Below are positions 2,031 to 60,887 of a DNA stretch of 63,884 nt, in pieces. The notes below the pieces were generated by a model. The model did not search any database and was not told the origin of the DNA. It saw nothing but the letters and a program-made list of their open reading frames with translations. The position numbers and the translations under genes are program-made. Where the stretch lies: the IMG/VR virus record IMGVR_UViG_3300045988_069167; one strand, 5' to 3'. The number at the start of each line of letters is the position of its first letter. The first letter of the stretch is position 1. The DNA comes from a virus.

Positions 2031-2693
2031 ATGATAGGTGCATTAATAGGTGCTGGACTTGGACTTGCAAGCAGTATCGCTAGCGGTATAGCTAACCGCA
2101 AGGCGAGACGTAAGCAGGAGCAGATGCTTGCCCAGCAGCAGAGAGAAAATCAGGCATGGTATGACAGGAAATATAATGAAGACCCTACCAAACGTGCCGA
2201 TACAGTAAGGTTGCTCACTCAGATGCAGGAGCAGATTAAGAACAGAAACAGAGCAGCTAAGGGCAGACAAGCCGTGATGGGCGGTACGGAAGACTCCACT
2301 ACTGCGGTAAAGGAGGCGAACAACAAGACTCTTGCTGATACGACCTCTCAGATTGTAGCTGCAAACGAAGCTCGCAAGGATGCTATCGAACAGCAGTATC
2401 AGCAGAATAAGCGTTCTATTCAGGGGCAACAGATGCAGATGGAAGCCGAGAAGTCTGCTGATACCGCTAACGTTGTAGCTGGTGTTGCTGGTACTGCTGC
2501 CAACATCGCTGCTACACTTGATAGTGGTGGCGGTAGTAGCAAGGCTCCTAAGCGTCCTGACGTGGTACAGCCTTCCGATGCGGATATGGCTAAGTTGGAT
2601 GCCAAGGTTGGTGCTGCTCCTACCCAGCATCAGGTAGCGAGTGACTTGAATAATATGGTTGGTGACAATGCACCAAAGAAGATTAAAGCATAG
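2031..2693 (+). CDS. Putative internal virion / ejection protein (Gly/Ala-rich hydrophobic N-terminus, Gln-rich coiled coil)
   Basis: 220-aa ORF. Starts MIGALIGAGLGLASSIASGIA, followed by a Q/K/R-rich helical region. First gene of an operon that ends in the giant ORF. Confidence 0.6.
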   Translation: MIGALIGAGLGLASSIASGIANRKARRKQEQMLAQQQRENQAWYDRKYNEDPTKRADTVRLLTQMQEQIKNRNRAAKGRQAVMGGTEDSTTAVKEANNKTLADTTSQIVAANEARKDAIEQQYQQNKRSIQGQQMQMEAEKSADTANVVAGVAGTAANIAATLDSGGGSSKAPKRPDVVQPSDADMAKLDAKVGAAPTQHQVASDLNNMVGDNAPKKIKA

Positions 2694-2696
2694 CCT

Positions 2697-3842: not shown

Positions 3843-3872
3843 CAGAATTGGTAACAAACAAATACATATATC

Positions 3873-18800: not shown

Positions 18801-20516
18801 GAAGACTTGAAGAAGAAATTCAAGAATGACTTGAAGGATTTGGATAGATGGAAGGCGAACCCAGTAAAGGTAGGGCACACCATCATGGATGGCATTGAGT
18901 TCCTGAACAGAATGATTGAGGATAGTAACCGATTTGCGGTTTACATGACCTCTATTCAGTATGGACGTTCCATTGATGAGGCTGTGAATGATGCCAAGGA
19001 CGTGACCCTGAACTTCAATCGCAAGGGTACTGGCGAATATGGCTGGCAGATGATTAGAAACCTCTATCTCTTCATCAACCCAGCAGTACAGAGTTTACAG
19101 ACCTTGGGTGCGCTTGTCAAACATCATCCTTTCAAGTTCACGGCTGTTACTGCATCATGGTTGGCGAGTGGTGTGCTGGTTCCTATCGTTAACGCTGCCC
19201 TGATGAGTCTGTTGGGCGGTGATGATGATAAGGATAAGTACTGGCAGTTCTCCAAGTGGGATAGACGGAACAACCTGATTATGTGGGTTCCTTTCACTCA
19301 TGAGTATGTGAAGATTCCGCTTGCTCAGGAGTTCCGTGCTTTCTACGGATTGGGAGATATGATTGCATCCAAGATGATGGGTGGCGAGTTGGCTGAGGAG
19401 AGTTGGAGTCAGTATGCAGAAGACTTGCTCGGTCAGGTAGTTGATATGCTTCCGCTCGACCCTACTGGATATGATGGCAATATTGCGGTCAGTCTGATGC
19501 CGAATGCTATTCGCCCAGTCTTTGAGTTGGCTTTCAATGTTGACTTCACTGGTAAGCCATTATTCAAGGAGACAGAGTATAATAAGTATGACCCTAACTT
19601 TACCAAGGCATACGTGGGCACTCCTGATTGGCTGGTACGTGCATCAAGGATGGTTAACTCAATCGGAAACGACTATCCTGATGTACAGCAGAATAGTATT
19701 GATGCTTTCGGTGACCCAAGATATAATCTGAATAACCCAGCGGTGGTTGATCACGTCTTGTCTTCCTATCTTGGTGGTGCATACACCATGGGTAGTCAGG
19801 TGCTTGGTTTGCTTACTAAGTCACTCAACGACCCGAAGGAAATCAAGGTGGCTGATATTCCATTATTCAGCAAGTTCGTCAGCAATCCTGATGATAGACC
19901 AGTTACTAAGAAACAAGGTGATGAGTTCTGGAATATGAAGGAGAACCACGACCGTGCAGCCAATACCCTGAGCAAGTTGAAGAAACAAGCCAAGGTGGAT
20001 GGCGATTACTCGATGCTGGAGCGGTTCTACGGATCTGAGGAGTATAAGCAGTACAAGCAGGATGATGTGAAGGTGAAGAAGTATGAGGAAGACAAGAAGA
20101 AGGAACGTGCTGAGGAGAGTGGAGAGGAGTATAGACCTCACAAGTTGAATGCCGAGGATATATATAAGGCTCACGCTACTCCGAAGGATGATTTCGAGGA
20201 CTTGAAGCTGAAACAACTCTACACTAAGTTGAACGGATATAAGTCTGCATACGACCTCTTGGTTGATACGGCTTCTAGTCAGAGCGATGGCTACTACAAC
20301 ACCAACAAGGCTGCCATTGATGCCATTGACGAGATTTCCCTTGATAAGCAGGAGATTTCCGAGTTAAAGAAAGGCTTCTTGGACGATGGCAAGGATGCCT
20401 ACAACGCTGAGGACATGAAACAGATTCGTGAACTGAGAAAGAAGATTCTTTCCGTGCTGGAGAGGGCTAACAAGGTAGTTGTGGCTAACCAGAAGGCGAA
20501 GGCTAAGAAAAAATAA
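3873..20516 (+). CDS. Giant multidomain polyvalent-type protein (5,547 aa), probably virion-packaged and ejected
   Basis: One uninterrupted 16,644-nt ORF. Contains HEMTH and HEMIH zincin motifs, a duplicated YHGS...GWG.Y module and a pyrophosphatase-like IENPKGS...DGDHLDMF motif. The C5-MTase motifs are complete (FSGGG, SPVCKNYS, ENV, TNRERL, GNGIP). There are 11 [KRS][FY]S[LI][KR] junction motifs and a C-terminal TM segment. Confidence 0.9.
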   Translation: MAERPLYTLYKNLKAQNYDVPNDYNKFESALTRDGKSGADNRHAIYENLKAQNFDVPDTYERFYSALFEPRSKTSSRAKGGSVPMSAADRARFSAGAAAISASAQQTMNNVGRYNRLKQRKQKQQKDFGRVNLGTHKTAFGGDANNVVKDDFAYNPETGKAGAYVTSDNENVYSQNDAEQKQNLLDKYGEEWNNAVDMGVVPSELDKADPDLSDTDVAMRQMERRQEWLDENQNRRSKELNESMHLQGSPFVASGGAVAPSSFNTAISNEANRLSDVEYGAYNTAKAYNQMLRTTLLQELKEQKQRNENAGWWKDKWNDVSNYFGAMFNTMLDPKLYSQGIMDAAIANNLLQVKKGMEDGTIKKGSNAGNAAQAMLGAIQQQQGEAAKQQQYGTKAYQYGDMSGRSLKFMADFALSGWRNVMTTGFTKTGEKVGEKMALGALGKWFTKNTGRVLGDIAGSAALAATNQLGSTYNNVIERYVGMNNENGGVTQDKNGDLKFNEGVSLGRAIKDGFGSATIENFSEMFGEYLPGASKLLSKLGLSKVSSFFEKIGNNAYYKWLSNATNKSGIQGVMAEISEEEFGTALHAAWGDGDGSWSDFNVFTNPDAREKQIDTCLGMFYSVGFMQAPRTAVGAINAVRYFNIKHQVTKADKFGQMMFNDKWEEIKDKIDVTTNADLTKTVLEATRSDSMTAKQKGAVINYAMFLSKLRGFNQASDAKTKDKVEEGETAPTLSNDLDDAYTEGHNADDTDKHNIQLEQNDKANELAAMLHITPEQLHDMADEDLEAMNGQDDKLDQAIYDYQVSTAKYQGVMDGAQDEVDMAAHQAAMETDNMTDLSRGTVRKATIKATGGLEDYEVYIISGNIATHDDGSIDVGNSDDMIIYYDPTTGRKEHADAMMFADLIEELPAADVKAQAINDAKENAIKKIAGIIDGTVEVGSQFSVTDADGTEHTYEVLADNGDGTAMITIDGNVPTELVKGENVQIPYSFADLQQMKDMEDQKRMEAAKAEREQMEKERAEQQTQETEETQPSFDFNQILNDDGNVVLTDVLGKDGNTKYPNSQLFLIRDSGAKAKVMELKSDGTLVPHAVNKKDVRTATTMSLDEYKQAFAASSMIEDNSGENRGEIEVEAPTIEGETAAPESAETPATEQTPAAPAITLEDGTIVPMLEDGNPDFSKLTAEQTAELYDSQFGEDADNVISGWVSDAKKVLDKANNMTVKGKNFVEQKAAKDAKEKAIADAQAAYDSAIAIRDAYNERQLAKVEDTADGRKNLIEKARRKFARLKSAVKDDAEAVAQIYKETVSSLLHRLYDGTGIDVTDTNPLTAEEYVASNLSAHTLNYEGTETSKGVKQETGLSREDFAKTQLLAADGKGTTIDNLVHSLWENRPSNLDSLNTQDIRNALIGVLTSGFKASEARSYVENIRIAQAEKLIEEERTAAENATYYEQQKAKEEEEKKKAELEKKAEEENKKAKEEKTEDNEQTKFPEKLKEGSKAIEAPGDATDEKPFGEQLDEANLPFSAKENGKKQTTSERAADVEKNKVDDMKVVDNIVGEKTRKAFARLAKMMGANIQWQYSDKLGNGWIQETKDADGNVHRTIFITLDSSITEGAQFIFGHEMTHQIKNLNPAAYNELTQLVLDTYGSDAFDKAVDETMKRYSDAGFSGRAREYYAEEVVADAVGEMIRDLNLAHTLAMKMSHPLLAAIHEILQKIKLAFFGTEYSDVTKNIIRSIEQAYVKTAKGEVTNSETGEDVSFSLRQKPEPKKKGIGYKVFVLKDGKLYPPMVANPNGAATPVGVWLDADAAPIAGESKTGRPQVKQGGSGKLAYRPGWHLGVVPYAIQFNRKDAEGNKTLFPKNFVFAEVEYAADVDYQEEARQEGINPSGKYQHSLAGLKHLPTDGYYMYRTNPNPETDPWMITGAMKVNRILTRAEQADLVSNAGREPQQIQEGDIVTDDVVNSINQEIADAPKFSLKVYHGSGSDFTDFDFDHMGDGAGSQVFGWGGYVTSSKKIGKSYATLMDNDPSKAYFRIQRSNGTRFAKKYPTLESFLHGDKQIAMNDKFTEQEKIDYYNEMKKLAEPYHNLYEVDIPDDNGSNYLDWDKPLSKKQQDSIREGLEHLGVGIKTLESKGQSLERTGENVYNSTLYIGLTGTEYDLPEKTKGISKFLSSVGFTGIKYKAGRNFGGAKKGDTNYVIFEPEDMKITEHTKFSIKTYHGSQSSFDHFDHSFMGSGEGAQAYGWGTYVTEVEGIAKAYAKQNAAKRNTEYSSAKFEYDTAKSSYNFAKGTYDFRMQDIDKLNNTLKWAKEQLVKAKESNRKNWIDEFEARVADTERALKENQDKLQDEKAEMGKAKKEMDEAKKRLDAIPEPERNLYTVEIPDDTGSNYIEWDGKAPDGLKEKVLDRLYNERREDFVDKMRKAGFNDDQIKEEADYTVNKEEMADTYLKHSATGGGLYRDLSYYLGEQKKASLFLKDMGIDGVKVIAKRNAGGNKEGKMNYVIFDENNAQIISHTKFSLRLKSAIDETETNPSDAQKESGNYKKGHIKFGGYDYTIENPKGSTRSGKDANGKEWKVTMHDTYGYIRGKFGKDGDHLDMFINDKADLDNWNGDVFVVDQVNPDGSFDEHKVMYGYDSMDDAKKSYLANYSDGWQGLGNITGASKDEFDKWLDTSNRKLKPFADYANVKFSLKDNQGNPLNQDGTLKLDKIKSVDELTDEDFLHPTRNVELPSLPNKIADAIGTEGKPVVIKKNIFERNYMRHKDVTPELSKTIFKSALYNTDLYGQNQKKTRPYNWVLINTKDEKGNNRTVLLEVNPNKDNVEIVHWHFVDERGLEKIKKQADREDGQLLILPSDKEEVGALSDPTVNLSAAKIDNSSETAKENGEKFSLKDDEYLKAVENGDMEKAQKMVNEAAEAAGYSTDSSYQGTSAFNGSAPWGNGYFLTKEERKEAWDNDEYDGDQTLGDYIHRGIDAMNLDFIALDPRNYRAADPMRKEAIDNVRNAIQKKSETITMYRSVPSDVKEGSFRNGDWVTPSRAYAVDNAKVHGWGDNFNIIEQKVPVDEIWWDGNDIAEWGYGREEDYVNDTDFAYKNTKNNRKLLDAVTYDDNGNVIPLSQRFNENNADVRYSLKDEKTMFGMHNISLDKLRKAIKQGGFAAPSMGVIDSKNGIYSGYGEITLIPKAEKIAKRTGKNIGTYAADAWTPIYPPVEKKFGGNGGDVAYDDIESVPKEMQSLTRNAINSFMDGRDTNSLAYLYLHEKGKAPELVHVEGKYPKELHDEVKGILGKLNGIYNTTDEQKEKLLDLFIREVYDGNKEEFDNDIKKFIKKDEEFIKKRPNSNISKDKQLDVDWMKEHGYDYGALSRFVDGILRDAETSGKVDENATMKAAQQYIQDKGMKEDFDSWKGKLNDRYQVEEVIFAGYKDDGNRKYLPNTVENAVKVMKQDGKNASVGSASFSHFVASILKPMGTLDQIRKKKGNLTGNYEDVEKFQEKWQPVYDELADKMQPDAEPFESYGMDRLEDAATQKNPKKYAKDEYGVDLTDEDIDKLNELIDAVKNEKPSIYFETKFMRPYGLDEFEKAIVPNDTPSDVIDALKMAGIDVSSYERGNAEDRQKVTMDAINSSDNIRFSLKSMMEKPEGWKQANKKTIHIAEAIERDPKFSLKNLDGTLIKAGTYFSGGGLVEEGLKGIIDPVVAVEYDEKISGVYRNNFGQHIVTADVRDVDPKELVKQIDGEVEYFHASPVCKNYSQAKSNHAEVELDKETAASTAEFINAIKPKVVTIENVKGYKDSEAMNIITDALDANGYTWDADVYNAADYGGYTNRERLIVRAVRDGKLPDKPKKMAHKSGWYEAVADIIPTLTEKKNGVAPWMDIRLKADGIDWRNIDKPLYVMGSAYADGKVPHAFADELLPTLRTKSGDVIVMPDGKVYRAMGRVLARVSGVSDDYKMPFSENLSHTIIGNGIPTQLTEHVIAPLLTGSDPKFSLKKTNNVKDSRIIPTDVDKRVSSQIEKKYDSAIKEVMNKVAERDKRLVSNYIDQDLSDFSKMRREDINQELKSNENWRRKNLREENREGSTYGITDARHRITEATAERELEYRDVRAKYLSETYGLQGGRQTSLDMVDRAFEDTLGNETNRGELRELYGKARKILVQVGAEFGGVDNAKQEGDLGFAGTDRDISLFIDTMTRTSTPQSELAHTILHEMIHQATIGSINLVKKGMADGMLTPKQIEAVNTIINTYDAYKADRRLVWEEDNYRDYGGKDEYEFAAEMADAKQRRILSIPYGERILNAANELKRVGDISLWQAIKNALRRLFEVSDKSKMDKALSDIMDDFNKNIDYISMNNIEETDFGLNGNTRFSLRYDKFEHDLNQWKKDNNLPKDAQRPTIPQRNAGESAVDFLRRVDEYRKQMALWKTAPTYEQHLLSDDTALGEFNRELQRGSVLKRIAFQDSMLAIRKAQEAIMKEVGVDRLNMAEDAYTAENRSHGKGKNEFEEYNNEFLQPLRKAYHQMKKVLGDSYDNVRIYMMAKHGLERDAQMAFKKSLEADYEDVAQRSAAYRAYKGDMNRMGNDSGFELGYIDFNTWRQKDDALRAKYSPSYMNYRYDKDGTAFDYSGLSALFGGSDFEEAASKLVRDIESSHVVEVQDLWNATNAATKKILRDGYKAGMMSKDTYQYVRDMYSHYIPLRGWDGTTADQVWDYIGGGKGAFNQILKTAHGRTSIADDPIAYIENMAESGILLNNKNWVKQHLMLLAQNHPTSLLTLSKAWYVKSVDDNGNEEWIPATPQITSQMDSNQVKAAIDAFEQKMEQMAQTGDATQKRDGLNIAYPQTHSEEREHEVRVMKDGEEYVIYVNGDPQLAQAMNNTRAHRVREIQSGKLDRAAAWLGRKMAAAYTSLSPLFIPSNYFRDLTMTLASTAIREDAKYNYLLRKNLATSWNLGFMLKDYQNGKLREKVSNGNATPKEQMFYDFMMNGGETGFVSSLDVEDLKKKFKNDLKDLDRWKANPVKVGHTIMDGIEFLNRMIEDSNRFAVYMTSIQYGRSIDEAVNDAKDVTLNFNRKGTGEYGWQMIRNLYLFINPAVQSLQTLGALVKHHPFKFTAVTASWLASGVLVPIVNAALMSLLGGDDDKDKYWQFSKWDRRNNLIMWVPFTHEYVKIPLAQEFRAFYGLGDMIASKMMGGELAEESWSQYAEDLLGQVVDMLPLDPTGYDGNIAVSLMPNAIRPVFELAFNVDFTGKPLFKETEYNKYDPNFTKAYVGTPDWLVRASRMVNSIGNDYPDVQQNSIDAFGDPRYNLNNPAVVDHVLSSYLGGAYTMGSQVLGLLTKSLNDPKEIKVADIPLFSKFVSNPDDRPVTKKQGDEFWNMKENHDRAANTLSKLKKQAKVDGDYSMLERFYGSEEYKQYKQDDVKVKKYEEDKKKERAEESGEEYRPHKLNAEDIYKAHATPKDDFEDLKLKQLYTKLNGYKSAYDLLVDTASSQSDGYYNTNKAAIDAIDEISLDKQEISELKKGFLDDGKDAYNAEDMKQIRELRKKILSVLERANKVVVANQKAKAKKK
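8580..8935 (+). other. Domain of giant ORF: zincin-like metallopeptidase module 1
   Basis: FIFGHEMTHQIKN, with HEMTH at 8718-8732 (aa 1616-1620). A downstream acidic helix reads YYAEEVVADAVGEM. Confidence 0.6.
9774..11399 (+). other. Domain of giant ORF: tandem duplicated module (aa 1968-2205 and 2206-2509)
   Basis: Both copies start KFS[LI]K.YHGS..F..FD...MG.G.G.Q..GWG.Y.T. Both contain NLY.V[ED]IPDD.GSNY..WD and end NYVIF[ED]......HTKFS. The second copy carries a coiled-coil insertion. Confidence 0.8.
11415..11912 (+). other. Domain of giant ORF: inorganic-pyrophosphatase-like module
   Basis: GNYKKGHIKFGGYDYTIENPKGSTRSG...YGYIRGKFGKDGDHLDMFIND. Matches 6 of the 7 positions of the family I PPase D-x-D-P-x-D-x signature, preceded by an E.PKG-like strand. 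Confidence 0.5.
14844..15797 (+). other. Domain of giant ORF: complete DNA (cytosine-5) methyltransferase
   Basis: Motif I YFSGGG, IV SPVCKNYS (catalytic Cys at 15084-15086), VI ENVKG, VIII TNRERLIV, IX RVLARVSGVSDDY, X GNGIPTQL. Bounded by KFSLK motifs at 14829 and 15798. Confidence 0.8.
16320..16740 (+). other. Domain of giant ORF: zincin-like metallopeptidase module 2
   Basis: AHTILHEMIHQATIGS, with HEMIH at 16452-16466 (aa 4194-4198). Confidence 0.6.
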
Positions 20517-24854: not shown

Positions 24855-25082
24855 TTACTGCCCCAACAAAATACGAATAACAGAACCTACTATTATCACA
24901 AAAGAGTATCTGGTAATATCCTCCCACTCAAACCTTTCTAACTTGTAGTGTTTATACTGGTAATATTCCCTTACTACCATGATAGGCAAAGCAAGCAGAC
25001 CTATCAATATGCTGATAAGCAGCCAACAAGCCAAGCCTGCCAAGTCTCGCTTGTTGAATGCAAGTAATTTCTTCCAAGTCAT
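24855..25082 (-). CDS. Small membrane protein (2 TM helices)
   Basis: 75-aa ORF containing LAGLACWLLISILIGLLALPIMV and SFVIIVGSVIRILL. Confidence 0.6.
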   Translation of the reverse strand: MTWKKLLAFNKRDLAGLACWLLISILIGLLALPIMVVREYYQYKHYKLERFEWEDITRYSFVIIVGSVIRILLGQ

Positions 25083-25092: not shown

Positions 25093-25641
25093 CTAGTAAA
25101 TTATCCAATAAATAACGAACACATCAAGGAATGCCGATACCTCCAGCCAATACCAAGGTTTAGCCAGCCAATGCCTCTTCGAGATAGCTAACTCCTCGTA
25201 TAGATGGAATGCGTATGCCACATATAGGATATACAGAATAGCAATAATAGCCGTCACCCACCAGCACACAGACAAGCACCATCCAACGCACCCAGCAGCA
25301 GCCACTAAAGCCGCTATCTTATGTACCTTGGACTCGTCGCCTAGGTAGTTAGGAGCGCAGCCAACGAAAGCCAGTCCTCCACACCCGATGAAAGCCAAGC
25401 ACTGCAAACCTTTGTCTAGGTCTAGTATAGCCACCATCATAAGGAGTGCCACCAAGACCATCACCACAGAGAACACCCAGCCGAAGTTATGATTAACCTT
25501 ACCGCCAAGCACCTCACTACCTGTTGTGCCTTGAAGCTGATAGTAGGTATCTGACACCATATCTGGCACTTCAAATCTCATTGCTGATAGCAAGAGAAAT
25601 CCCCCAAGAAGGAGAAAGGAAATCAATGATAATAACCACAT
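25093..25641 (-). CDS. Integral membrane protein (5-6 TM helices)
   Basis: 182-aa ORF, hydrophobic throughout and Cys/Trp-rich. Confidence 0.65.
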   Translation of the reverse strand: MWLLSLISFLLLGGFLLLSAMRFEVPDMVSDTYYQLQGTTGSEVLGGKVNHNFGWVFSVVMVLVALLMMVAILDLDKGLQCLAFIGCGGLAFVGCAPNYLGDESKVHKIAALVAAAGCVGWCLSVCWWVTAIIAILYILYVAYAFHLYEELAISKRHWLAKPWYWLEVSAFLDVFVIYWIIY

Positions 25642-30282: not shown

Positions 30283-32427
30283 CTATATGATGGTTGCTGC
30301 CGAAACAGAAACCTTTCTTGTCATTACTCTTGTCTTATACTCTATCATCTTAGGCATTTCCATTTCATTGAAACAGATGTGGAGTCCGATGGCTCTGGTC
30401 ATGAGCAAATCATCGTGTTTTCCGTCTGCCGCCTCATAAACCGTTCCGTTCTTTTCGTAGGTGAGATATTCGTCTAAACATCTGCCGTCTCGCTCTACAT
30501 AGAGTTGCTCACGGATAACCTGAACCAATACAGAGATAACCATAGGCTTGGTAGCTACGTTGGTATGGAATCCATATTTTACTGGAACCTTATTCTTGAT
30601 GTCTGATTCACTCTGCTTTCGTGCATAGAGGTTATCATATACGTCCTTGATTTGGTTCAAGATGAACTCAGATTGGTCTCCACCTTCCAATATATGTTCC
30701 TTGTCTTTTGTTTCCAAGGTGTTTGACTCAATAACCAGTAGGGCATCGTTGTAGAATTTGGCTATCTGAGCAGCCTTCCATGCCAGCAAGTCCATATCAA
30801 TATGACCATACCATTGTGCTACCACGTAAGGTTTGCCTCCTTCCATCATCCAGTAGCGGTCGAATACGCAGATAACAGACCAGTCGGCATTCTTGCTACG
30901 TCCACCAATATCCACTACAACCAGATAGCGGTTGGTTACCTTACAATCATCAAAAGTCTCAGGCTTGCTCCATATCCACAACTGACCTTGCTTGTCTTCA
31001 CAGAATCGCACATTCTGCATACACTTCTTGCCCTTATATCCGTCACCATAAACATCACCGATGAACTTAGGTGCTCGGCATCCTTTTCTGAACTTGTCAA
31101 CCTTGTCTTCGGCAAACACCTTGGCTCCTGAATGCTTGAATGCCTCAATATCATCGGTAGGGTAGCCAGCAGCCATATCGGCATGGTCGGTGAACTTCTT
31201 GCGCTCGGCAATATACCAGTTGATGGCTTCGAGTGGGGCACCAAGATTCCATAGTTTCCAAAGATAGGTGCCTGGCTCTTCTCGGTCGGACATCGTGTTG
31301 GTGTTATTGCGGTTCTCGTATAGCCATTTGGCAAACTCTACCTTCTGTTTCTTGCTTTCAAATTCAAGATGATACATATCGTATATCTCGTACCAAGGAA
31401 CAAAGAATGGTTCGAATTGGGATTCTCCCTTGACTGCTGCAAGCCACTCCTTGTGGAAGAAGTTGCCAGTACCATTGGCGGTGGATTCATAGGCAATCAT
31501 AGTGTATGGTCGGTACAAGATACCATTAGTAGCATTCTGCACCACCTCTTCTGGAGACTTTCCGTCCGTCTTTTTCCACAATCCAACCTCGGAAAGGTGA
31601 ACCAAGTTGTAATCTTCACCATTGGCTGACAGCGGTCGCTCCATTGAACCCACCTTAATCTTGCAGAATCGCTGAGGAACCTTCTTGACGTTTCCTGATG
31701 TTCCGACACCCACAAACTTCGGATCGTTCTCAGAATACGCTTCTCCCATTTCGTAGAGGAACTTGGTAGGAAAGTTTTTCAGAGCTTCCTCGAACATTCC
31801 TCGGATGGTTTCAGCCGTGTCCTTCACCTGAGCAACAATCAGCGAGTTGAGACCCTTCTGCCACATGAGTTGCAGCCAGAGGAAGTACATCTGAATAACC
31901 GTTGAACCTCCCCATTGTCTTGCTTTTAGCAGGATGAGACGGATAGGGCGATTCTTCTTTCTTCGCTCTTCCAGCCATCTGAGAAGTCTTCTCTGCGGTC
32001 TTCTCAGTACAAAACGGAAGGGGAGACCTCCACCTTTCGGTTTGATATATATGAACGTGGCAAAGAAGAAGAATGGGTCATGTTTCATTCTGATGCGAGT
32101 GAACTGCTCCACCAGTTGCTCCATTTCTTCCTCTAGGTTGTACGGCTCGTCTATATCCTTGTGCAGTTCCTCGATTACCGCCTTGCAGCTACCCAACTCG
32201 ATGAGCATCTTGACGAGCGGAATCTTCTTCATCGAAATTGGAAGCTGCTGCTTCTGAATCGGGAAATCAGGAAGAACAAGCGCAAATCGCTTGTCTCCAC
32301 ACCCTTCACCCTTGATGGGGTTGAATGGTGTGTTGATTTCCTTGATGCGTTTCTCGTTTTCCTTCAGAATGCCCAATACGTGTTTGTCGAGTGCATCAGT
32401 CAGTTTGGCGGTTACTTGTCTTGGCAT
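30283..32427 (-). CDS. terL: Terminase large subunit
   Basis: Walker A-like LLKARQWGGSTV, Walker B-like YNLVHLSEVG and the nuclease region VVVDIGGRSKNADWSVICVFD. The start is taken at MPRQVTAK (32427), because the upstream extension lies inside the rhomboid gene. Confidence 0.9.
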   Translation of the reverse strand: MPRQVTAKLTDALDKHVLGILKENEKRIKEINTPFNPIKGEGCGDKRFALVLPDFPIQKQQLPISMKKIPLVKMLIELGSCKAVIEELHKDIDEPYNLEEEMEQLVEQFTRIRMKHDPFFFFATFIYIKPKGGGLPFRFVLRRPQRRLLRWLEERRKKNRPIRLILLKARQWGGSTVIQMYFLWLQLMWQKGLNSLIVAQVKDTAETIRGMFEEALKNFPTKFLYEMGEAYSENDPKFVGVGTSGNVKKVPQRFCKIKVGSMERPLSANGEDYNLVHLSEVGLWKKTDGKSPEEVVQNATNGILYRPYTMIAYESTANGTGNFFHKEWLAAVKGESQFEPFFVPWYEIYDMYHLEFESKKQKVEFAKWLYENRNNTNTMSDREEPGTYLWKLWNLGAPLEAINWYIAERKKFTDHADMAAGYPTDDIEAFKHSGAKVFAEDKVDKFRKGCRAPKFIGDVYGDGYKGKKCMQNVRFCEDKQGQLWIWSKPETFDDCKVTNRYLVVVDIGGRSKNADWSVICVFDRYWMMEGGKPYVVAQWYGHIDMDLLAWKAAQIAKFYNDALLVIESNTLETKDKEHILEGGDQSEFILNQIKDVYDNLYARKQSESDIKNKVPVKYGFHTNVATKPMVISVLVQVIREQLYVERDGRCLDEYLTYEKNGTVYEAADGKHDDLLMTRAIGLHICFNEMEMPKMIEYKTRVMTRKVSVSAATII

Positions 32428-32891
32428 AGCGGTGCATTTAGATAACCCCACAACAGACCAAGTACATAGCAATAGATGTGGACTCCAACCGCCATGCAAG
32501 GGAAAAAGATTCCAACACAGATATATAGGAGAATTGTGAGATTGTATCTTACCTTATTCTCCACGTAGGGGGCGATAAAGCCCATGTAAGCATATATAAA
32601 TCCGCTGAGACCGATGATTGGTGCGGATGATGCAAAAGGATAGCTTACGGCTATGATATAGAATGCTACCATGTGACCGATACCGCAAGGGATTGCTCGG
32701 TAACATTGGTGAAAAACATAGAGGTTGATGGCTACATGAAAGATGTTCTGATGAAAGAAAGGGTAGCTTAGTCGGTTCTGAATAGAGCAACCTTCAAAGA
32801 GACCCATGCCATCATATCCTATGAGCGTGATACATATTATTATAATGTACCCTGAATAAAACGCAATCTTCTCTGACGAAGTTCGTAGCAT
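32412..32891 (-). CDS. Rhomboid-family intramembrane serine protease (minimal 6-TM core, 159 aa)
   Basis: FFHQNIFHVAINL (H-x4-H-x3-N), IGLSGFIYAYMG (GxSG) and GVHIYCYVLGLLWG (His plus GxxxG) appear in the order of TM2, TM4 and TM6. GAAGGAGGAG lies 9 nt upstream of the ATG at 32891. The ORF fills the only gap between its neighbours. Confidence 0.8.
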   Translation of the reverse strand: MLRTSSEKIAFYSGYIIIICITLIGYDGMGLFEGCSIQNRLSYPFFHQNIFHVAINLYVFHQCYRAIPCGIGHMVAFYIIAVSYPFASSAPIIGLSGFIYAYMGFIAPYVENKVRYNLTILLYICVGIFFPCMAVGVHIYCYVLGLLWGYLNAPLCQDK

Positions 32892-33295
32892 CTTTTCTTC
32901 TCCTCCTTCCTCACCCGATGAAGTATGACGTGCATGGATTTTGGAGTGAGATAGAAACTCGGTGCTTCCTGATTGCACACATGCCAAATGGCATCCATCT
33001 TGGTGAGAGAAGGATGCTCCTTGGAATAAATCTTGTATCTTCGGAAAATCTCCTGAAACATTGCTCTTTTCTGTGGATTCATGCTGCTGATGGATTTACC
33101 ATTGAGCATATTGAGAATGACATTGTATGCTCGGTCGGAAGAAACCCAAAAACGTTTGCTTGGAGATTGCAATAGTCTTCGCTCAATCTCCAAGATGCCT
33201 ATATTGTCTCTTACTGATATAATCTTCTTGTAAGCCCTCAATATGTCAGCGTCACGTTCCTTTGTAAAGTCACATCGTGAGCCTTTATGTTTCAT
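32840..33295 (-). CDS. Hypothetical DNA-binding-like protein upstream of terL (possible small terminase)
   Basis: 151 aa counted from MKHKGSRCDF. The ATG at 33295 lies 10 nt downstream of a TATCTTTG box, so the longer tracked start falls inside the promoter. The function is positional only. Confidence 0.6.
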   Translation of the reverse strand: MKHKGSRCDFTKERDADILRAYKKIISVRDNIGILEIERRLLQSPSKRFWVSSDRAYNVILNMLNGKSISSMNPQKRAMFQEIFRRYKIYSKEHPSLTKMDAIWHVCNQEAPSFYLTPKSMHVILHRVRKEEKKRCYELRQRRLRFIQGTL

Positions 33296-33305
33296 ATATA
33301 TAAGG

Positions 33306-33313
33306 CAAAGATA
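33306..33313 (-). promoter_or_regulatory. -7 box TATCTTTG (minus strand), leftward packaging operon
   Basis: caaagata on the + strand. Divergent from the box at 33396. Confidence 0.5.
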
Positions 33314-33395
33314 CACAAATGTATTGAAATAACCAAATTAATTGGATACAATTAAGTATAGTTAACGGATAAGATTAATAATAAGTTGAAAAGCG

Positions 33396-33403: not shown

Positions 33404-33435
33404 GTGCATTGATTTATAAATTTATACATATATAT

Positions 33436-34251
33436 ATGAACAAAAATATAAATACAGAGCAGAATGCTGGTGCTGCTAAACAACAAGATACAAAGACCAA
33501 GAGAGACTTGGCTTTGGAACGCTTGAAGACCAGACATCCCGACACCGAGTATGCAGACGATGAGTCTATCTATGGAGCCATCAATGACGATTATGATGCC
33601 GACCAGAAGGCTTTGCAGGGTTACAAGGATAACGAGAAGGCTATGGGCGATTGGCTGGGTAGTGACCCTGAGGCGGCTACCTTCCTTCAGGCGATGAAGG
33701 CTGGCAAGAGTCCTTACGCTGAGTTGATTCGCACGCATGGCGAGGATGCTATTGACTACTATTCAGACCCTGACAATGCGGACGAGATTGCATCGGCTCA
33801 GTCTGAGTTCTTGCAGAATGCTGCCAACGGCAAGAAATTGCAGGATGAGTATGACAAGAATATGCCATCCAGCTATGAAGTCTTCGACAAATTGGAAGAG
33901 AAGTATGGCGAGGAAGCGGTGAACAATGCTATTGACCAATGCTTTCAGACTATGCGCAATGTGGTGACGGGCAAGTTTACAGAGGAAATGATTACTGCGT
34001 TCATCAAGGCTAAGAACCATGATACCGATGTGGCTGATGCTGCCCATGAGGGTGAAGTTCGTGGCAAGAACAGCAAGCACGTAAAGAACTTGGAGCTTCG
34101 CAAGAAGGGTGATGGTACTGCTGACCTTGATTCTGCCAATGCAGAAACTAAGCAGACAGATAACCAGCCTGACCTTGGTGCGCTTGGTAGGGTATCACGT
34201 AGAGGTAACATCTGGGAGCGTGGGCACGAGAAAAGAACACGTATTCGATAA
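33436..34251 (+). CDS. Putative scaffolding protein
   Basis: 271-aa acidic helical protein immediately upstream of the capsid gene, with a basic C-terminal tail GRVSRRGNIWERGHEKRTRIR. Confidence 0.6.
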   Translation: MNKNINTEQNAGAAKQQDTKTKRDLALERLKTRHPDTEYADDESIYGAINDDYDADQKALQGYKDNEKAMGDWLGSDPEAATFLQAMKAGKSPYAELIRTHGEDAIDYYSDPDNADEIASAQSEFLQNAANGKKLQDEYDKNMPSSYEVFDKLEEKYGEEAVNNAIDQCFQTMRNVVTGKFTEEMITAFIKAKNHDTDVADAAHEGEVRGKNSKHVKNLELRKKGDGTADLDSANAETKQTDNQPDLGALGRVSRRGNIWERGHEKRTRIR

Positions 34252-34303: not shown

Positions 34304-35842
34304 ATGAAGAAAAGTAAATTTAATCGGCTGCTTTCCATTTTTCTGATGGTTATGGCGGTTATTTTTGGTGTGAATGGTCAGGTCGTTATGGCTGAGGCGG
34401 CTCTGCCTGATGGCGGTACGTCCGAAAGTGGCCATGCTGCTGAGGCTGGCGGTGCTACCGCTGCCGATGATGCTGGCAATGGTGGCGCAGCCCGTCAGAA
34501 TGATGGTATCGCTACTGAGGGAAAAGGTCGTGAGCACTTTAACGAGAATGGCACGGAGTTCTATGAGAACGACATCAACGACAAGATTACTAAGATTCGT
34601 CCGATGGCTACTCCTGTTGACCAGATTTCACGCTATGCGACAACCAAGTCTGCCAGTTCATTTGTAGTTGAGTATTGGAGTATCGGTACACGTCCTATCA
34701 AGACTACCGTCAAGGAAACAACTGTTGAGAGTACTGGTACATCTATGGTATTGAAGGTAGAAGACCCTGAAATGTTTACGCTGGATGATACCATCCGAGT
34801 TGTAGGTGTTAAGGCGATTACCAACTACAAGAATCAGGCTTATGCAGACCTTACCGATGAACCTACTCCTGATTTGGAACTTTGTGTGTGCGGAAAGGAT
34901 AATGAGGGTTATCCTATTGTGTATGCAGTAAATGGTAAATTGGTTAAGAAACAGCCTATTGGCGTTCCAGCCTTACAGAAGGGTCAGAAGCTCATTCGTA
35001 TGGCGAAGAGTTGCGGTGAGTTGGACGTACAGACAGGTCGTTTCAACAACCTTCCTGCTTCTGAGACTCAGTTCTGCCAGAACTTCATGATTCAGATTGA
35101 GGAGAGTACCTTCAATAAGATTGCTGCTAAGCGAGTAGATTGGGACTTCTCTGATATTGAGGAGGATAGTATCTACGATATGCGTCTTGCTATGGAGGGT
35201 ACTTATCTCTTCGGTGATATGGCTTGTATCAAACATACCACCAAGAACAACTCTGCCCAGTGGTTTACAAAGGGTATCTGGTGGATGGCTGGAAAGGATA
35301 TTGAGGTAGGTCATGTTGCTACTGCCGATGATATAAAGAAGGGTTACAACAAGAACGAGCGAGTGATTACCGATTTGGAGTTGGTTGACATTTCTAAGGA
35401 TTTGTTCGTTGGTACTGGTATCGGCAACAAGCGCAAGGTGATTATCGCTGGCTCAGACTTCGTGAGCGCATTCAGTAAGATTAATTCTGATAAATTCCGC
35501 TTGAAGGACACCGTTGAGGTTTGGGACTTGAAGTTCAAGAGTTGGGAGACCGACTTTGGTGAGGTGCTGATGATTCACTCTGAGTTATTTGACCTCTTTG
35601 ATATGAGTGACTGCGGCTTCGCTCTTGACCCAGAGTTCTTGGTTAAGCGAGTACACTTGTCTTGGACACGTAACGTACTCGACTTGAAGAAGGCTGGCAT
35701 CCGTAACACCGATGCAGTAGTTATTCAGGAGGTAGCTTGTCTGTACTTGAAGTACCCTAAGGCACACGCTCGTATGCGCCTTGCTGCGGTTCCTGCAACA
35801 GATAGCATGTCTGAAACTGGCGAGACAAAGGCTGCTGCCTAA
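34304..35842 (+). CDS. Major capsid protein (HK97-fold-like) with unusual signal-peptide-like N-terminus and about 95-aa low-complexity pro-region
   Basis: 512-aa ORF between the scaffold and portal genes, followed by a strong terminator. Contains ITKIRPMATPVDQISRY and a beta-rich core. The N-terminus reads MKKSKFNRLLSIFLMVMAVIFGVNGQVVMAEA. Confidence 0.75.
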   Translation: MKKSKFNRLLSIFLMVMAVIFGVNGQVVMAEAALPDGGTSESGHAAEAGGATAADDAGNGGAARQNDGIATEGKGREHFNENGTEFYENDINDKITKIRPMATPVDQISRYATTKSASSFVVEYWSIGTRPIKTTVKETTVESTGTSMVLKVEDPEMFTLDDTIRVVGVKAITNYKNQAYADLTDEPTPDLELCVCGKDNEGYPIVYAVNGKLVKKQPIGVPALQKGQKLIRMAKSCGELDVQTGRFNNLPASETQFCQNFMIQIEESTFNKIAAKRVDWDFSDIEEDSIYDMRLAMEGTYLFGDMACIKHTTKNNSAQWFTKGIWWMAGKDIEVGHVATADDIKKGYNKNERVITDLELVDISKDLFVGTGIGNKRKVIIAGSDFVSAFSKINSDKFRLKDTVEVWDLKFKSWETDFGEVLMIHSELFDLFDMSDCGFALDPEFLVKRVHLSWTRNVLDLKKAGIRNTDAVVIQEVACLYLKYPKAHARMRLAAVPATDSMSETGETKAAA

Positions 35843-37013: not shown

Positions 37014-39050
37014 ATGGCGAAGAAGAAAGAAGAAACCAAACTGCTATCGTTGAGCAGGGTGCTTGACAAGGAAGAACTGGATAGCGTGAAGGCATCCAAG
37101 AACCGATTTGACAAGCCTTATGAGCGTGCCTTCTCTATCTTGCTGGAGGCTCAGCGATATTACAATAACATGGATAACTTCCGAAAGCGAAGACAGAGAA
37201 ACAAGCGATATTGCTATGGAGACCAGTGGGGAGATACCATTGAGTTCAAAAGCAAGTGTGGCTTTAAAAAGCGTATCAAGGAGGAAGACTATATCCGTGA
37301 GCAGGGTAGCGAACCATTGAAGAACAACCTTATCCGTAGATTGGTGAAGAATGTACTGGGTGTATATCGCTCACAGAGCAAGGAACCTACGTGCAATGCT
37401 AGAGATAAGGATGAGAAACGATATGGTGAGACCATGAGCGTGGTGCTGCAATGTAACCGACAACTGAACCGAGAGACGGAACTGGATGCACGAACCATGG
37501 AAGAGTTCCTGATAAGCGGTGCTGCTATCTATAAGAAAAAGTATGGATGGCGAAGAGGTAGGTTGGATTGCTGGACGGACTACGTGAACCCGAACAATTT
37601 CTTCATAGACAACAATATGAGGGATTTCCGTGGTTGGGACGTGAGTTGCTTGGGTGAGGTGCATGACATTACCATCGGCAACGTACTGAGAGAGTTTGCC
37701 AAGTCTCCTGCTGAGGCTCGTAAGTTGAAGGAGATATACCGGTTGGCGGCTAACCGAGATTTCGTGATTGCAGACTGCACTCAGCGATTCGGTGAGTTCG
37801 ACCCTAAGACCATCGACTTTATGAATCCTGCCAACCCTTCGCTCTGCCGAGTGATTGAGGTCTGGCGCAAGGAGAGTAAACCGAGATACCGATGTCATGA
37901 CTACAACAATGGTGACGATTTCAAGATTGATATTGAGGATAAGGCTGATATTGTAGATGCAGAGAACAAAGACAGAATCAGGCGAGGAATGGCTGCTGGC
38001 ATGCTGGAAGAGGATATTCCTCTGATTGATGCCGAGTGGTTTGTGGATGATTACTGGCATTTCTACTACCTTTCTCCTTTTGGTGATATTCTGAGAGAAG
38101 GCGAGACCCCTTATGCTCATGGTGAGCATCCATACTGCTTTAAGTTCTATCCGTTTATTGATGGCGAGATTCACAGCTTCGTGGAAGATGTGATTGACCA
38201 GCAGAGATACGTGAACCGACTTATCACGATGTATGACTTCATCATGCGTGCGAGTGCCAAGGGTGTGCTGCTCTGTCCTGAGGATTGTCTTCCTGATGAT
38301 ATGAGTTGGGATGATTTCTGCGATGAGTGGAGTAGGTTCAATGGTGTGGTGAGATACAAGCCAAACAAGAGCGGTCAGGTTCCTCAGCAAGTGGCGAACA
38401 ATTCTACGAATATCGGTATCGGTGATTTGCTCAGTTATCAGTTGAAGTTCTTCGAGGATATATCGGGAGTGAATGGTGCGCTGCAAGGGAAACCAGGAGT
38501 ATCAGGTACGAGCGGTTCGCTTTATGCCCAGCAGACACAGAATGCTACCATGTCGCTGCTTGATATTTTGGAGACTTTCAGCCAGTTTATCATTGATGGT
38601 GCTTACAAGACCGTGAAGAATATGCAGCAGTACTACGATGTGGCTCGCAACTTCAATATCGTGGGTAGGGCAGGACAGATTGTGCGCTATGACCCTAAGA
38701 AGATTAGAGACGTGGAGTTTGACATCAATATAACGGAAAGTACGGCTACTCCTGTTTATAGACAGATGGCAAATGAGTTCCTTATGACCTTGTGGCAGAA
38801 TCAGGCTATCACGCTGGAGCAGTTGCTGCAAGTAGGAGATTTCCCATTTGGAGAGGAGTTGCTGCAATCGGTTGCATCCAACCAGCAAGCCATTCAGAAT
38901 GGTGAGACTCCACAAGGATTCTCTCCTCAGTTGCAAGCACAAGTGGATCAGGCATCACAGAGCAACCCAAAGGCTCAGGCGATGTTGCAGCAGATGATGA
39001 GCGGTCAGGGGGTGAGTCCTGACGGACAGACCCCACCGCTTGCTGCTTAA
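37014..39050 (+). CDS. Portal protein
   Basis: 678 aa. Contains the N-terminal motif NFRKRRQRNKRYCYGDQWGD, a large alpha/beta core and a Gln-rich C-terminal tail. Confidence 0.8.
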   Translation: MAKKKEETKLLSLSRVLDKEELDSVKASKNRFDKPYERAFSILLEAQRYYNNMDNFRKRRQRNKRYCYGDQWGDTIEFKSKCGFKKRIKEEDYIREQGSEPLKNNLIRRLVKNVLGVYRSQSKEPTCNARDKDEKRYGETMSVVLQCNRQLNRETELDARTMEEFLISGAAIYKKKYGWRRGRLDCWTDYVNPNNFFIDNNMRDFRGWDVSCLGEVHDITIGNVLREFAKSPAEARKLKEIYRLAANRDFVIADCTQRFGEFDPKTIDFMNPANPSLCRVIEVWRKESKPRYRCHDYNNGDDFKIDIEDKADIVDAENKDRIRRGMAAGMLEEDIPLIDAEWFVDDYWHFYYLSPFGDILREGETPYAHGEHPYCFKFYPFIDGEIHSFVEDVIDQQRYVNRLITMYDFIMRASAKGVLLCPEDCLPDDMSWDDFCDEWSRFNGVVRYKPNKSGQVPQQVANNSTNIGIGDLLSYQLKFFEDISGVNGALQGKPGVSGTSGSLYAQQTQNATMSLLDILETFSQFIIDGAYKTVKNMQQYYDVARNFNIVGRAGQIVRYDPKKIRDVEFDINITESTATPVYRQMANEFLMTLWQNQAITLEQLLQVGDFPFGEELLQSVASNQQAIQNGETPQGFSPQLQAQVDQASQSNPKAQAMLQQMMSGQGVSPDGQTPPLAA

Positions 39051-39936: not shown

Positions 39937-39986
39937 CATAACTTATCTTTGCGTATTATTAATATTTTAAAAAAAGATAAGTTATG
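39937..39986 (+). promoter_or_regulatory. Perfect 14-bp inverted repeat enclosing a -7 box and ending on the holin start codon
   Basis: cataacttatcttt (39937-39950) pairs with aaagataagttatg (39973-39986). TATCTTTG lies at 39944-39951. The ATG at 39984-39986 is inside the right arm. Confidence 0.6.
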
Positions 39987-40247
39987 TCTCCAAACGTGCG
40001 TGAAGGATTGCAATATAGTGCAGCTATAGGAATGCTTTTGAGCGGTGTTGTACTCACATTCCTATCATTCTTTCTCAACAATTATGTAGTGTCGGATGGT
40101 GTGCTTTGGTACGTCAGCCAGACTTTGGTTTACTCTGGGGCGATATTCGGGGTAAACGTTTATTTCAAAACAAAATTGGGCAACTTTGAAAGCAGGGTTA
40201 AAAGTGAACTTGCGAGTATAATGAAACAGGTAAAGGAGGGTAAGTAA
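39984..40247 (+). CDS. Holin-like protein (2 TM helices)
   Basis: 87 aa, with two hydrophobic helices and a charged C-terminus, immediately upstream of the endolysin gene. Confidence 0.65.
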   Translation: MSPNVREGLQYSAAIGMLLSGVVLTFLSFFLNNYVVSDGVLWYVSQTLVYSGAIFGVNVYFKTKLGNFESRVKSELASIMKQVKEGK

Positions 40248-40801
40248 TGAAGGTAACAAGAGAACAGATTTTGGCGATTATGCCGAATGCAAAAGATAAG
40301 GTGGACGCTTTTTTGCCTTACATCAATGGTTATGCTGAGGTGTTTCATATTGATACTCCTAAGCGTATGGCTCATTTCTTGGCTCAGATTGCTCATGAGA
40401 GTGGCGAACTGAGATACACTAAGGAACTCGGCAATAAGAACTACTTTCACAAGTATGATGTAGGCGAGTTGAAAAATATGCTCGGGAACCTGAAAGATGG
40501 TGATGGGTATAAGTATCGTGGTAGAGGATTGATACAGATTACTGGCAGGGCAAACTATCAGGCATTTCAGAACAGCAAATATTGCTCTGATGATATTATG
40601 GAAAACCCTCAGTTGTTAGAGCTTCCCCTGTTGGCAACCAAGAGTGCGATGTGGTGGTGGTGGAAACACGACCTGAACAAACTGGCTGATAGTGATAGTT
40701 TCGTGGCTATTACCAAGACCATCAATGGTGGAACTAACGGCTTGGAATCAAGGCGAAAGTTCCTAACAAGAGCAAAGAAGGCTTTCAAAATTCGTCTATG
40801 A
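40247..40801 (+). CDS. Endolysin, glycoside hydrolase family 19 (chitinase-like lysozyme)
   Basis: MAHFLAQIAHESGELRYTKELG and YRGRGLIQITGRANY are hallmark GH19 motifs. Confidence 0.85.
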   Translation: MKVTREQILAIMPNAKDKVDAFLPYINGYAEVFHIDTPKRMAHFLAQIAHESGELRYTKELGNKNYFHKYDVGELKNMLGNLKDGDGYKYRGRGLIQITGRANYQAFQNSKYCSDDIMENPQLLELPLLATKSAMWWWWKHDLNKLADSDSFVAITKTINGGTNGLESRRKFLTRAKKAFKIRL

Positions 40802-41265
40802 AAACAAACTGGTATGATACTTATTTTTGGCAAGTAGCACTCTACGTGATAAGCCTCTTGCTGGTGGCATTTCTTCTGTCTGGATGCAAAACAAAGTACA
40901 TTCCGATGGAAAAAATTGTATATCAGAATGTGATAAAACACGATACGCTGCATACTTCTGACAGCGTTTTCGTACGTGATTCAATCTTCCTCAGACAGAA
41001 GGGAGATACTTGCTTTCTTGACCGATGGCATGAGAAGACCGTCTATAAGAATGTGTATAAGGTGAAGGTGGATTCCTTCTTGAAAAGAGATTCTATCCCA
41101 GTACCCTATCCAGTAGAAAAACAACTCTCAAAGTGGGAGCGGATTCGGTTGAAGTATGCAGTGTGGTCGTTTGGCGCACTCTGTATGCTGCTCATCATAT
41201 TAGGTTATAAACTCTATAAAAAGATAAAGAATGGCAGATTTCACATTGACAATCAAGAAAAATGA
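40798..41265 (+). CDS. Unimolecular spanin candidate (N-terminal lipoprotein signal plus C-terminal TM helix)
   Basis: Lipobox LLSGC after a hydrophobic signal. C-terminal helix YAVWSFGALCMLLIILGY. The gene overlaps the endolysin stop. Confidence 0.6.
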   Translation: MKTNWYDTYFWQVALYVISLLLVAFLLSGCKTKYIPMEKIVYQNVIKHDTLHTSDSVFVRDSIFLRQKGDTCFLDRWHEKTVYKNVYKVKVDSFLKRDSIPVPYPVEKQLSKWERIRLKYAVWSFGALCMLLIILGYKLYKKIKNGRFHIDNQEK

Positions 41266-60067: not shown

Positions 60068-60083
60068 TTAAAATGTGGTAGGT

Positions 60084-60593: not shown

Positions 60594-60595
60594 TT

Positions 60596-60871
60596 ATGAA
60601 ACATATAGTATTACTTTTCGCCATCATCCTGATGGCATCATGCAGCAGTTCTTCCAAGAAGTCTGCTGATGTAGAACCTGAGAAGAAGGAGTCTGCCGTA
60701 AAGTCGGCTGGCTCTAGTGATAATGTTTTCATCTGTACTGGCAGTTCATCCAAGCGTTACCATTGTGACAGAGATTGCAAAGGTCTCTCTCGCTGCTCAG
60801 GAGAAATAGAAGAGTTAAGTGAAGAGGAAGCTGAGGATATGGGCAGAACTCCTTGCAAGATATGTTATTAA
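60596..60871 (+). CDS. Small lipoprotein with C-terminal Cys/His zinc-binding-like motif (moron)
   Basis: MKHIVLLFAIILMASCSSS lipobox-like signal. C-terminus KRYHCDRDCKGLSRC...RTPCKICY. Confidence 0.65.
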   Translation: MKHIVLLFAIILMASCSSSSKKSADVEPEKKESAVKSAGSSDNVFICTGSSSKRYHCDRDCKGLSRCSGEIEELSEEEAEDMGRTPCKICY

Positions 60872-60887
60872 TTTAAATGTGGTAGAT

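Follow-up and report, generated by a model that had tools for sequence, protein, structure and literature searches.

A small open reading frame (ORF) on the minus strand of IMG/VR virus record IMGVR_UViG_3300045988_069167, a stretch of 63,884 nucleotides (nt) referred to below as the window, encodes a 159-residue protein that is very probably an active rhomboid intramembrane serine protease with a Ser96-His138 dyad, as judged from residue conservation across the family and from a predicted structure. The gene is placed directly ahead of the gene for the large terminase subunit (terL), and it is fixed at this place throughout a large phage family. Members of this family are temperate phages of Bacteroidales and have in common a P22-type portal, an SU10-type capsid protein, and a giant polyvalent ejection protein. 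In the same phages, the major capsid protein (MCP) starts with a presequence that resembles a canonical signal peptide. Given the co-occurrence of rhomboid and presequence, their paired losses, and the lack of a detectable prohead protease in the head module, we tentatively suggest that the job of the rhomboid is tied to the capsid presequence, although this suggestion is drawn from sequence comparison and falls somewhat short of even odds. For the statement as a whole, namely that an active rhomboid is fixed in a phage family and has the capsid presequence as its substrate, we estimate a probability of roughly 0.4.

Family, fold and catalytic residues

Since searches with the single sequence were weak or empty, the assignment to the rhomboid family was settled by profiles. 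On its own, the 159-residue protein scored below the cut-off of 22.6 bits against Pfam PF01694 (E=0.072, 13.7 bits), its best match in the PDB was GlpG of H. influenzae (E=0.023), and PHROGs held no matching family. In the extended family, PF01694 was matched by 50 of 54 members at E<0.1 (best 1.6e-5), and a profile of 54 homologues retrieved nothing but GlpG from the PDB, with 17 of 17 matches at E<=1 belonging to this protein (best 2nr9, E=3.3e-7) and no nonrhomboid match at the same threshold. A profile search of a large database reached relatives of 160 to 170 residues that carry both PF01694 and the NCBI name “rhomboid family intramembrane serine protease” (P0078-P0092). The preliminary description, made from the letters of the window alone, had called the protein a rhomboid, and this call is supported at the family level by the PF01694 and GlpG profile matches, while the single sequence remains under the threshold. 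Membership in the rhombosortases was ruled out, since the NCBIfam model TIGR03902 gave 10.7 bits (E=0.39), far under its equivalog cut-off of 84. At E<=1e-3, the search for relatives yielded 1707 cluster representatives; among the best 150, nearly every one has 155 to 180 residues. Judged from their sequences, these small rhomboids form a distinct subfamily whose members are very small.

Conservation was counted over 132 distinct homologues drawn from about 300 loci, with identities down to about 25%. The three motifs by which the protein had initially been recognized, FFHQNIFHVAINL, IGLSGFIYAYMG and GVHIYCYVLGLLWG, are all found in the translation, at residues 45-57, 93-104 and 136-149, respectively. 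The H-x4-H-x3-N motif of transmembrane (TM) helix 2, whose likeness to GlpG had been pointed out before, aligns to H145/H150/N154 of the E. coli enzyme; H47 and H52 occur in all 132 homologues and N56 in 131. Likewise, the residues proposed as catalytic align to GlpG S201 and H254: G94 and S96 are present in 131/132 homologues, the sole exception being an ORF cut by a contig end, and H138 in 131/132. In TM6, G145 is kept in 125/132 homologues and otherwise replaced by Ala or Ser, and Y100 aligns to GlpG Y205. The L1 loop has about half the length of its GlpG counterpart, the Trp position of the WR motif holds L, N or Q, and the loop arginine R40 (113/132) is placed by HMMER one position after GlpG R137.

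An AlphaFold2 (AF2) model built on a diverse alignment reached a predicted local distance difference test (pLDDT) of 91.6 and a predicted TM-score (pTM) of 0.87, superseding an earlier run on a shallow alignment (pLDDT 60). It places six TM helices at residues 2-24, 50-66, 71-82, 96-109, 113-129, and 135-152, as well as a short L1 helix at 37-45, in line with the six-TM architecture read from the sequence beforehand. When this model was compared with the PDB by Foldseek, the top 15 matches were GlpG structures (E from 3.9e-4, TM-score 0.52-0.63), followed by iRhom1/2 and then by Der1. The lysines and arginines of the loops are unevenly distributed, with 8.1 on one side versus 1.6 on the other, which gives the GlpG topology; the protein is accordingly predicted to be N-in/C-in with its active site towards the periplasm. 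On the same count, an inverted enzyme, which would suit a substrate with an N-in helix, was rejected.

Gene order and the capsid presequence

The rhomboid ORF runs on the minus strand, which the preliminary description had left unstated, from an ATG at 32891 to a stop at 32412-32414 (159 codons). It shares 52 nt with the 158-residue ORF upstream (32840-33316) and, with the terL ATG taken as 32427, 16 nt with the start of terL, both overlaps agreeing with those given before. Because it overlaps both neighbors, the gene is probably expressed late, at a low level, and in translational coupling with the terminase genes. Sixty-seven homologues at 48 to 89% identity are nearly all 156 to 161 residues long, and the median ratio of nonsynonymous to synonymous substitution rates (dN/dS) among close relatives is about 0.12 (2794 pairs). 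Together with the invariant catalytic residues, these figures show that the ORF is genuine and not a chance product; it is a real gene. The ribosome-binding sequence noticed earlier, GAAGGAGGAG, is present, with a spacer of 8 nt rather than 9. Its GGAGG is conserved in the Prevotella-type clade only (55 of 108 distinct upstream regions, 32892-32916 and equivalents), and Bacteroides-type relatives have an A-rich stretch in its place, so that a Shine-Dalgarno sequence was ruled out as a general feature of the family.

The arrangement of the genes is strongly conserved. An ORF of about 150 residues precedes and overlaps the rhomboid gene in all related loci, terL follows it in every relative, and this small ORF-rhomboid-terL series is divergent from the genes for the scaffold-like protein and the MCP, the latter lying 1.4 kb from the rhomboid. 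The full order occurs in three Bacteroides isolates, the phages BS-TP4, BKO1-TP3 and BF1-TP2, whose rhomboids are 30 to 36% identical to that of the window, and it recurs in metagenome loci. Every related phage that is complete enough retains it, down to about 30% identity, and the gene is neither absent nor degenerate in the relatives. Overall, this order is present in 160 of 171 sources examined; of the remaining 11, which have no rhomboid, seven are contigs cut before the rhomboid position and four are the presequence-less loci described below. The constancy of this pattern across isolates, metagenome loci, and sources marks the rhomboid as a hallmark of the phage family and not as a moron. 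In the preliminary description, the upstream gene was labeled as putatively small-terminase-like, for which the position before terL is the sole support: we found no terS match, and searches of Pfam, NCBIfam and the PDB returned nothing significant (best PDB match a homeodomain, E=0.07). A scaffold role for the acidic product of the gene next to the MCP gene is likewise suggested by position and composition.

With a length of about 64 kb, the window appears to represent a complete temperate phage. The closest genome matches are prophages in Prevotella and Segatella copri (MCP identity 87 to 93%), and hosts or prophages of the rhomboid-bearing family include Prevotella/Segatella, Bacteroides, Phocaeicola, Alistipes, Muribaculaceae, and others, with more than 500 related contigs in IMG/VR.

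We then turn to the capsid protein, whose N-terminus in the window reads MKKSKFNR, LLSIFLMVMAVIFGV, NGQVVMAEA, and ALPDGG, that is, a basic segment, a hydrophobic core, G-x-N-G, V-V-M-A-E-A, and then LPDGG. An in-frame stop lies directly 5′ of the capsid ATG, and the same architecture is found in divergent relatives (region 34304-34417 of the window and its equivalents in L001-L010 and L091-L304). Over 110 distinct capsid sequences, the n-region carries a net charge of +3 and is followed by a hydrophobic core of about 14 residues and a G-x-S/N-G turn; M-A-x-A is conserved and LPD[A/G]G nearly invariant, these features being scored in 103 to 110 of the 110 sequences. An acidic linker of about 50 residues then leads from LPD[A/G]G to the start of the capsid fold; the acidic C-terminal flank has a net charge of −6. 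Translation from an internal start at the conserved Met before A-x-A, which would yield a capsid protein devoid of the hydrophobic segment, was rejected, since in several lineages (L133, L142 and L148) Met is missing both at this position and everywhere else ahead of the KIRPM motif. The putative cleavage site has a small P1 residue, a hydrophobic P4 residue, and Gly/Ser helix breakers just upstream. Such features were reportedly described by Strisovsky and colleagues in 2009 as those of rhomboid substrates. We know of no tailed-phage precedent for an HK97-fold MCP with a canonical signal-peptide-like presequence, and no relevant report of signal peptides on capsid proteins came up in searches of the literature.

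The rhomboid and the presequence co-occur. Every rhomboid-bearing locus with an intact capsid ORF has the presequence, which holds for about 150 loci in a first survey and for 120 in a second, 112 of the latter with at least 3 kb of upstream flank; the exception, L145, has a capsid ORF broken by a run of N. Conversely, no surveyed locus combines the rhomboid with an intact, presequence-less capsid protein. The only loci with adequate flank that are without the rhomboid (L144, L151, L153 and L168) are exactly those with a presequence-less MCP, and the MCP of L144 begins with MSTTLPEAG, just past the proposed cut site. In a neighbor-joining tree of the mature MCP domain, these four proteins fall at two separate places among presequence-bearing ones, which indicates two independent losses. 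All four loci (L144 7169-9192, L151 5575-9260, L153 2559-6472, L168 5626-9269) are small clusters of portal-like, scaffold, MCP, and a few further genes in Bacteroidales genomes, with no terL nearby and with host genes on their flanks; they may be satellites or cryptic remnants with a borrowed capsid module. One further locus, L265, has no rhomboid beside its capsid gene, but is rearranged and hence uninformative. Taken together, these patterns give comparative support to the hydrophobic N-terminal segment of the capsid protein, one of several possible substrates named in the preliminary description.

Table 1. Positions of the rhomboid gene, its motifs, and other features in the window
Feature	Position	Strand	Remarks
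Mini-rhomboid intramembrane serine protease gene	32412..32891	-	159 residues; 6 TM helices and a short L1 helix
TM2 motif H47-x4-H52-x3-N56	32724..32753	-	aligned to E. coli GlpG H145/H150/N154
Catalytic serine motif G94-L-S96-G97, start of TM4	32601..32612; S96 codon 32604-32606	-	aligned to GlpG G199-L-S201-G202
TM6 segment with catalytic H138 and G145-x3-G149	32445..32480; H138 codon 32478-32480	-	aligned to GlpG H254, G261
Shine-Dalgarno-like GAAGGAGGAG	32900..32909	-	inside the upstream gene; spacer to rhomboid ATG 8 nt
Capsid presequence, residues 1-32, and LPDGG motif	34304..34417	+	proposed rhomboid substrate
MCP, SU10/DUF5309 type	34304..35842	+	PF17236, E=7e-28; phrog_26635, E=6e-205
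Upstream ORF, about 150 residues across the family (158 in the window)	32840..33316	-	phrog_27246, function unknown, E=1e-35
Large terminase subunit (terL)	30283..32427	-	phrog_2, E=2.8e-17; downstream of the rhomboid in every relative
Scaffold-like acidic protein	33409..34251	+	phrog_22323, E=2e-68, function unknown; next to the MCP gene at every locus
T7 gp14-like internal virion protein	2031..2693	+	alternative substrate; PF24072, E=2.3e-6, 28.1 bits (cut-off 27)
P22-type portal	37014-39050		
Tyrosine integrase	62471-63703		

Several other regions of the window are recognizable. A likely trio of ejection proteins (2031-20516) consists of the T7 gp14-like protein, a 381-residue ORF, and a 5547-residue polyvalent protein with InPase, LPD13, PBECR5 nuclease, C5 DNA methylase, and LPD38 domains. 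Downstream of terL, at the end of the tail/structural operon, two minus-strand genes encode a 4-TM protein of 182 residues (25093-25641) and a 2-TM protein of 75 residues (24855-25082), neither with a family match. The lysis cassette (39984-41265) follows the portal gene and comprises an 87-residue, single-TM holin-like protein, a GH19 endolysin, and a u-spanin-like protein with the lipobox LLSGC and a C-terminal TM helix. Finally, the region adjoining the integrase (60075-62287) contains a series of small ORFs whose products have a signal peptide, a lipobox, or several TM helices, and looks like a moron or lysogenic-conversion region.

Possible substrates of the phage rhomboid

How might the rhomboid and the presequence work together? 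In the scheme that we propose, the rhomboid would be a late protein, produced along with the terminase at a low level, while the MCP would insert into the membrane through its N-terminal presequence. The protease would then cut the presequence at or near the conserved M-A-x-A, just before LPDAG, and this cleavage would either detach the capsid protein from the membrane or clear away the presequence. The rhomboid would in effect be the maturation protease of a head module in which none is otherwise recognizable, as neither the rhomboid nor the other head-module ORFs examined matched prohead protease families in Pfam or PHROGs. In its full form, in which an HK97-fold MCP is a membrane-inserted precursor freed by a phage rhomboid and the latter represents a new class of capsid maturation protease, we regard this scheme as doubtful.

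Several observations weigh against the presequence as the substrate. Given its n-region of +3 and its C-flank of −6, the presequence resembles a type II anchor or a signal peptide of the Sec pathway and is predicted to be N-in/C-out. The classical rhomboid substrate is an N-out/C-in helix, and a presequence of the predicted topology would be unusual in this role, although it is conceivable that the phage enzyme may accept a helix in the reversed orientation. The N-in/C-out topology would, moreover, carry the capsid domain out of the cytoplasm, a location difficult to square with tailed-phage assembly. A phage enzyme would not even be strictly needed, since M-A-x-A is a textbook A-x-A site of the host signal peptidase I. 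The co-loss of rhomboid and presequence amounts to two independent events only, and module exchange could explain it, since the presequence-less MCPs sit in different elements without terL; as these elements are also flanked by host genes, the four loci are weaker evidence than four ordinary phages would be. Moreover, the distant contig IMGVR_UViG_3300001598_000058 (L308), whose MCP is 28% identical, has a hydrophobic MCP N-terminus and no rhomboid in bases 9002-58339 of its 58339, and a second, incomplete contig (L222) resembles it. In this distant group as a whole (L224, L305, L306 and L308, and also L222), the MCPs are 28 to 30% identical with a hydrophobic N-terminus, terL has a small ORF or none directly ahead of it, and no rhomboid was detected. 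Since this distant contig has the presequence but is free of the rhomboid over 85% of its length, we rejected the idea that presequence and rhomboid strictly depend on each other; capsid proteins of this kind do not always need the rhomboid.

These distant phages would be accounted for if signal peptidase I of the host removed the presequence at A-x-A and the rhomboid cleared leftover signal peptides or trimmed misinserted precursor, thereby acting as a signal peptide peptidase or in quality control and protecting membrane integrity until lysis. For such processing, the presequence has a canonical n-h-c architecture and a canonical A-x-A site, the MCP is the most abundant late protein, and the co-occurrence of rhomboid and presequence would be explained equally well. 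However, the remnant peptide would likewise be N-in, an orientation that rhomboids seldom take, bacteria already own SppA and RseP for this task, and the assembly of an exported capsid protein would be just as puzzling, so that we consider this course of events distinctly unlikely. The difficulty of orientation falls away if the substrate is another phage membrane protein in the usual orientation, in which case the rhomboid might tune the maturation of ejection proteins or the timing of lysis. The gp14-like protein begins with a Gly-zipper helix followed by RKARRK, which predicts an N-out/C-in topology as in TatA, the substrate of the rhomboid AarA; BKO1-TP3 and BF1-TP2 have the same gp14-like N-terminus, and the presequence-less elements carry gp14-like homologues with a shorter hydrophobic start. 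The phage also encodes single-pass lysis proteins, namely the holin-like protein (39984-40247) and the u-spanin-like lipoprotein (40798-41265). On the other hand, a gp14-like homologue with the same Gly-zipper N-terminus is found in the distant, rhomboid-negative phage L308 (6673-7356), and the rhomboid gene sits outside the lysis cassette. The related loci that we compared cover the head region only, and co-occurrence data therefore pertain to the capsid protein and not to the gp14-like or lysis proteins. On balance, a substrate of this kind appears unlikely.

It is also imaginable that the rhomboid acts on a host membrane protein involved in envelope, transport, or signaling functions, for instance to counter a membrane-based defense, to exclude superinfecting phages, or to prepare the envelope. 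Bacterial rhomboids are known to act on host proteins, among them TatA, MgtE, and respiratory subunits left without their partners. Accessory use of rhomboids by phages does occur, since a “rhomboid membrane protein” is encoded among the moron-like genes of Stenotrophomonas phages DLP5 and DLP3 (PMC5834331, PMC7326821). The gene studied here, by contrast, is fixed in the head/packaging operon of phages from Prevotella to Bacteroides, Alistipes, and Muribaculaceae and not in an accessory region, a pattern more readily expected of a substrate within the phage than of one in the host. With a host target, the coupling with the capsid presequence would also go unexplained, and we judge such a target improbable. 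Lastly, the gene might encode no working protease at all, but a pseudoenzyme, a membrane anchor that tethers, for example, the terminase or the procapsid, or a spurious ORF. Such a view could appeal to the single sequence scoring under the Pfam gathering score, to the missing PHROGs family, and to the noncatalytic rhomboid folds iRhom and Derlin, given that iRhom and Der1 are among the fold matches. Yet the catalytic and oxyanion residues are invariant across the 132 distinct sequences, the opposite of what is seen in pseudoproteases, and purifying selection is strong and the rhomboid fold confident, which makes the lack of protease activity very improbable indeed.

Rhomboids are structurally well understood, while very few of their bacterial substrates are known. 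The phages described here are very common in human and animal guts, and the gene for their minimal rhomboid belongs to their fixed core, wired into the terminase operon. Its proposed link to a signal-peptide-bearing capsid protein is new and only moderately supported. If this coupling holds, it would provide rhomboid research with a genetically linked pair of enzyme and substrate, and at about 159 residues the enzyme is among the smallest rhomboid cores, which makes it attractive for structural and mechanistic work. If the proposed cleavage is real, tailed-phage capsid assembly would have a membrane step and a previously unseen type of maturation protease, and these would be the first intramembrane protease and the first membrane-tethered capsid precursor in tailed-phage head morphogenesis. 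Whatever the mechanism, the canonical Sec-type presequence of the capsid protein is noteworthy in itself.

Comparison with known systems

Related entries in GenBank and UniProt already bear automatic rhomboid or GlpG-like labels. The “rhomboid domain-containing protein” of the Bacteroides phages BS-TP4 and BF1-TP2 carries an automatic name and is, together with its counterpart in BKO1-TP3, an orthologue in the same gene order; the paper describing these phages does not mention the gene. In the GenBank records of the three isolates (PQ571277.1, PQ571269.1 and PQ571263.1; L001-L003), terL is labeled “tail spike protein” and the MCP “DUF2951/DUF5309,” and one rhomboid is called a “glycoside hydrolase.” The “Protein glpG-like protein” of Podoviridae sp. 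ctzXp5 and ctsfx1, again an automatic label, has 155 to 160 residues and a TM-score of 0.70 to the AF2 model. In full-text searches of the literature, no study devoted to phage rhomboids came up; they are mentioned only in the gene listings of two Stenotrophomonas phage genome papers, where the DLP5 and DLP3 genes lie in an accessory region (PMC5834331, PMC7326821), and no proposal of a function, a substrate, or a link to the capsid for viral rhomboids was found. The view of the preliminary description that rhomboids are unusual in phage head/packaging modules agrees with the outcome of these searches.

Among characterized enzymes, GlpG of E. coli and H. influenzae (MEROPS S54, PF01694) is the best match in both sequence and fold. 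The phage protein has the same six-TM core, GxSG on TM4, the His on TM6, the H-x4-H-x3-N of TM2, a Tyr four residues after the Ser, and a predicted N-in/C-in topology. It differs in that it is only about 18 to 20% identical and has 159 residues versus 192 to about 276 for GlpG, it is without the cytoplasmic domain and the Trp of the WR motif, its L1 is shortened to about half and its L5 cap is very short, and it is encoded in a head/packaging operon.

For the proposed function, the nearest analogy is AarA of Providencia stuartii. This seven-TM cellular enzyme removes a short N-terminal extension of TatA and thereby activates it, a case of maturation through rhomboid cleavage at the N-terminal TM helix of a protein, as may be imagined for the capsid presequence or for the gp14-like protein. 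TatA is, however, N-out/C-in, whereas the capsid presequence is predicted to be N-in/C-out. The pairing of a dedicated rhomboid with a dedicated signal also recalls the rhombosortase/GlyGly-CTERM system, in which the order motif-TM-basic is mirrored by that of the capsid presequence (basic, TM, M-A-x-A, LPDAG); the capsid signal is N-terminal, whereas that of rhombosortase is C-terminal.

Finally, the prohead proteases (HK97 gp4 and T4 gp21; S78/U35/U9) are phage proteases of the head module that remove an N-terminal segment of the capsid protein, an activity that for the rhomboid is only proposed, by analogy and not as a member of these families. Enzymes of the HK97 gp4 and T4 gp21 types are soluble, are co-assembled inside the prohead, and have a fold unrelated to that of rhomboids. 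Because a six-TM enzyme cannot enter the prohead, the rhomboid would have to do any processing at the membrane, either ahead of assembly or while it is under way. A start of head assembly at the inner membrane is known from T4, where prohead initiation is membrane bound (gp20-gp40).

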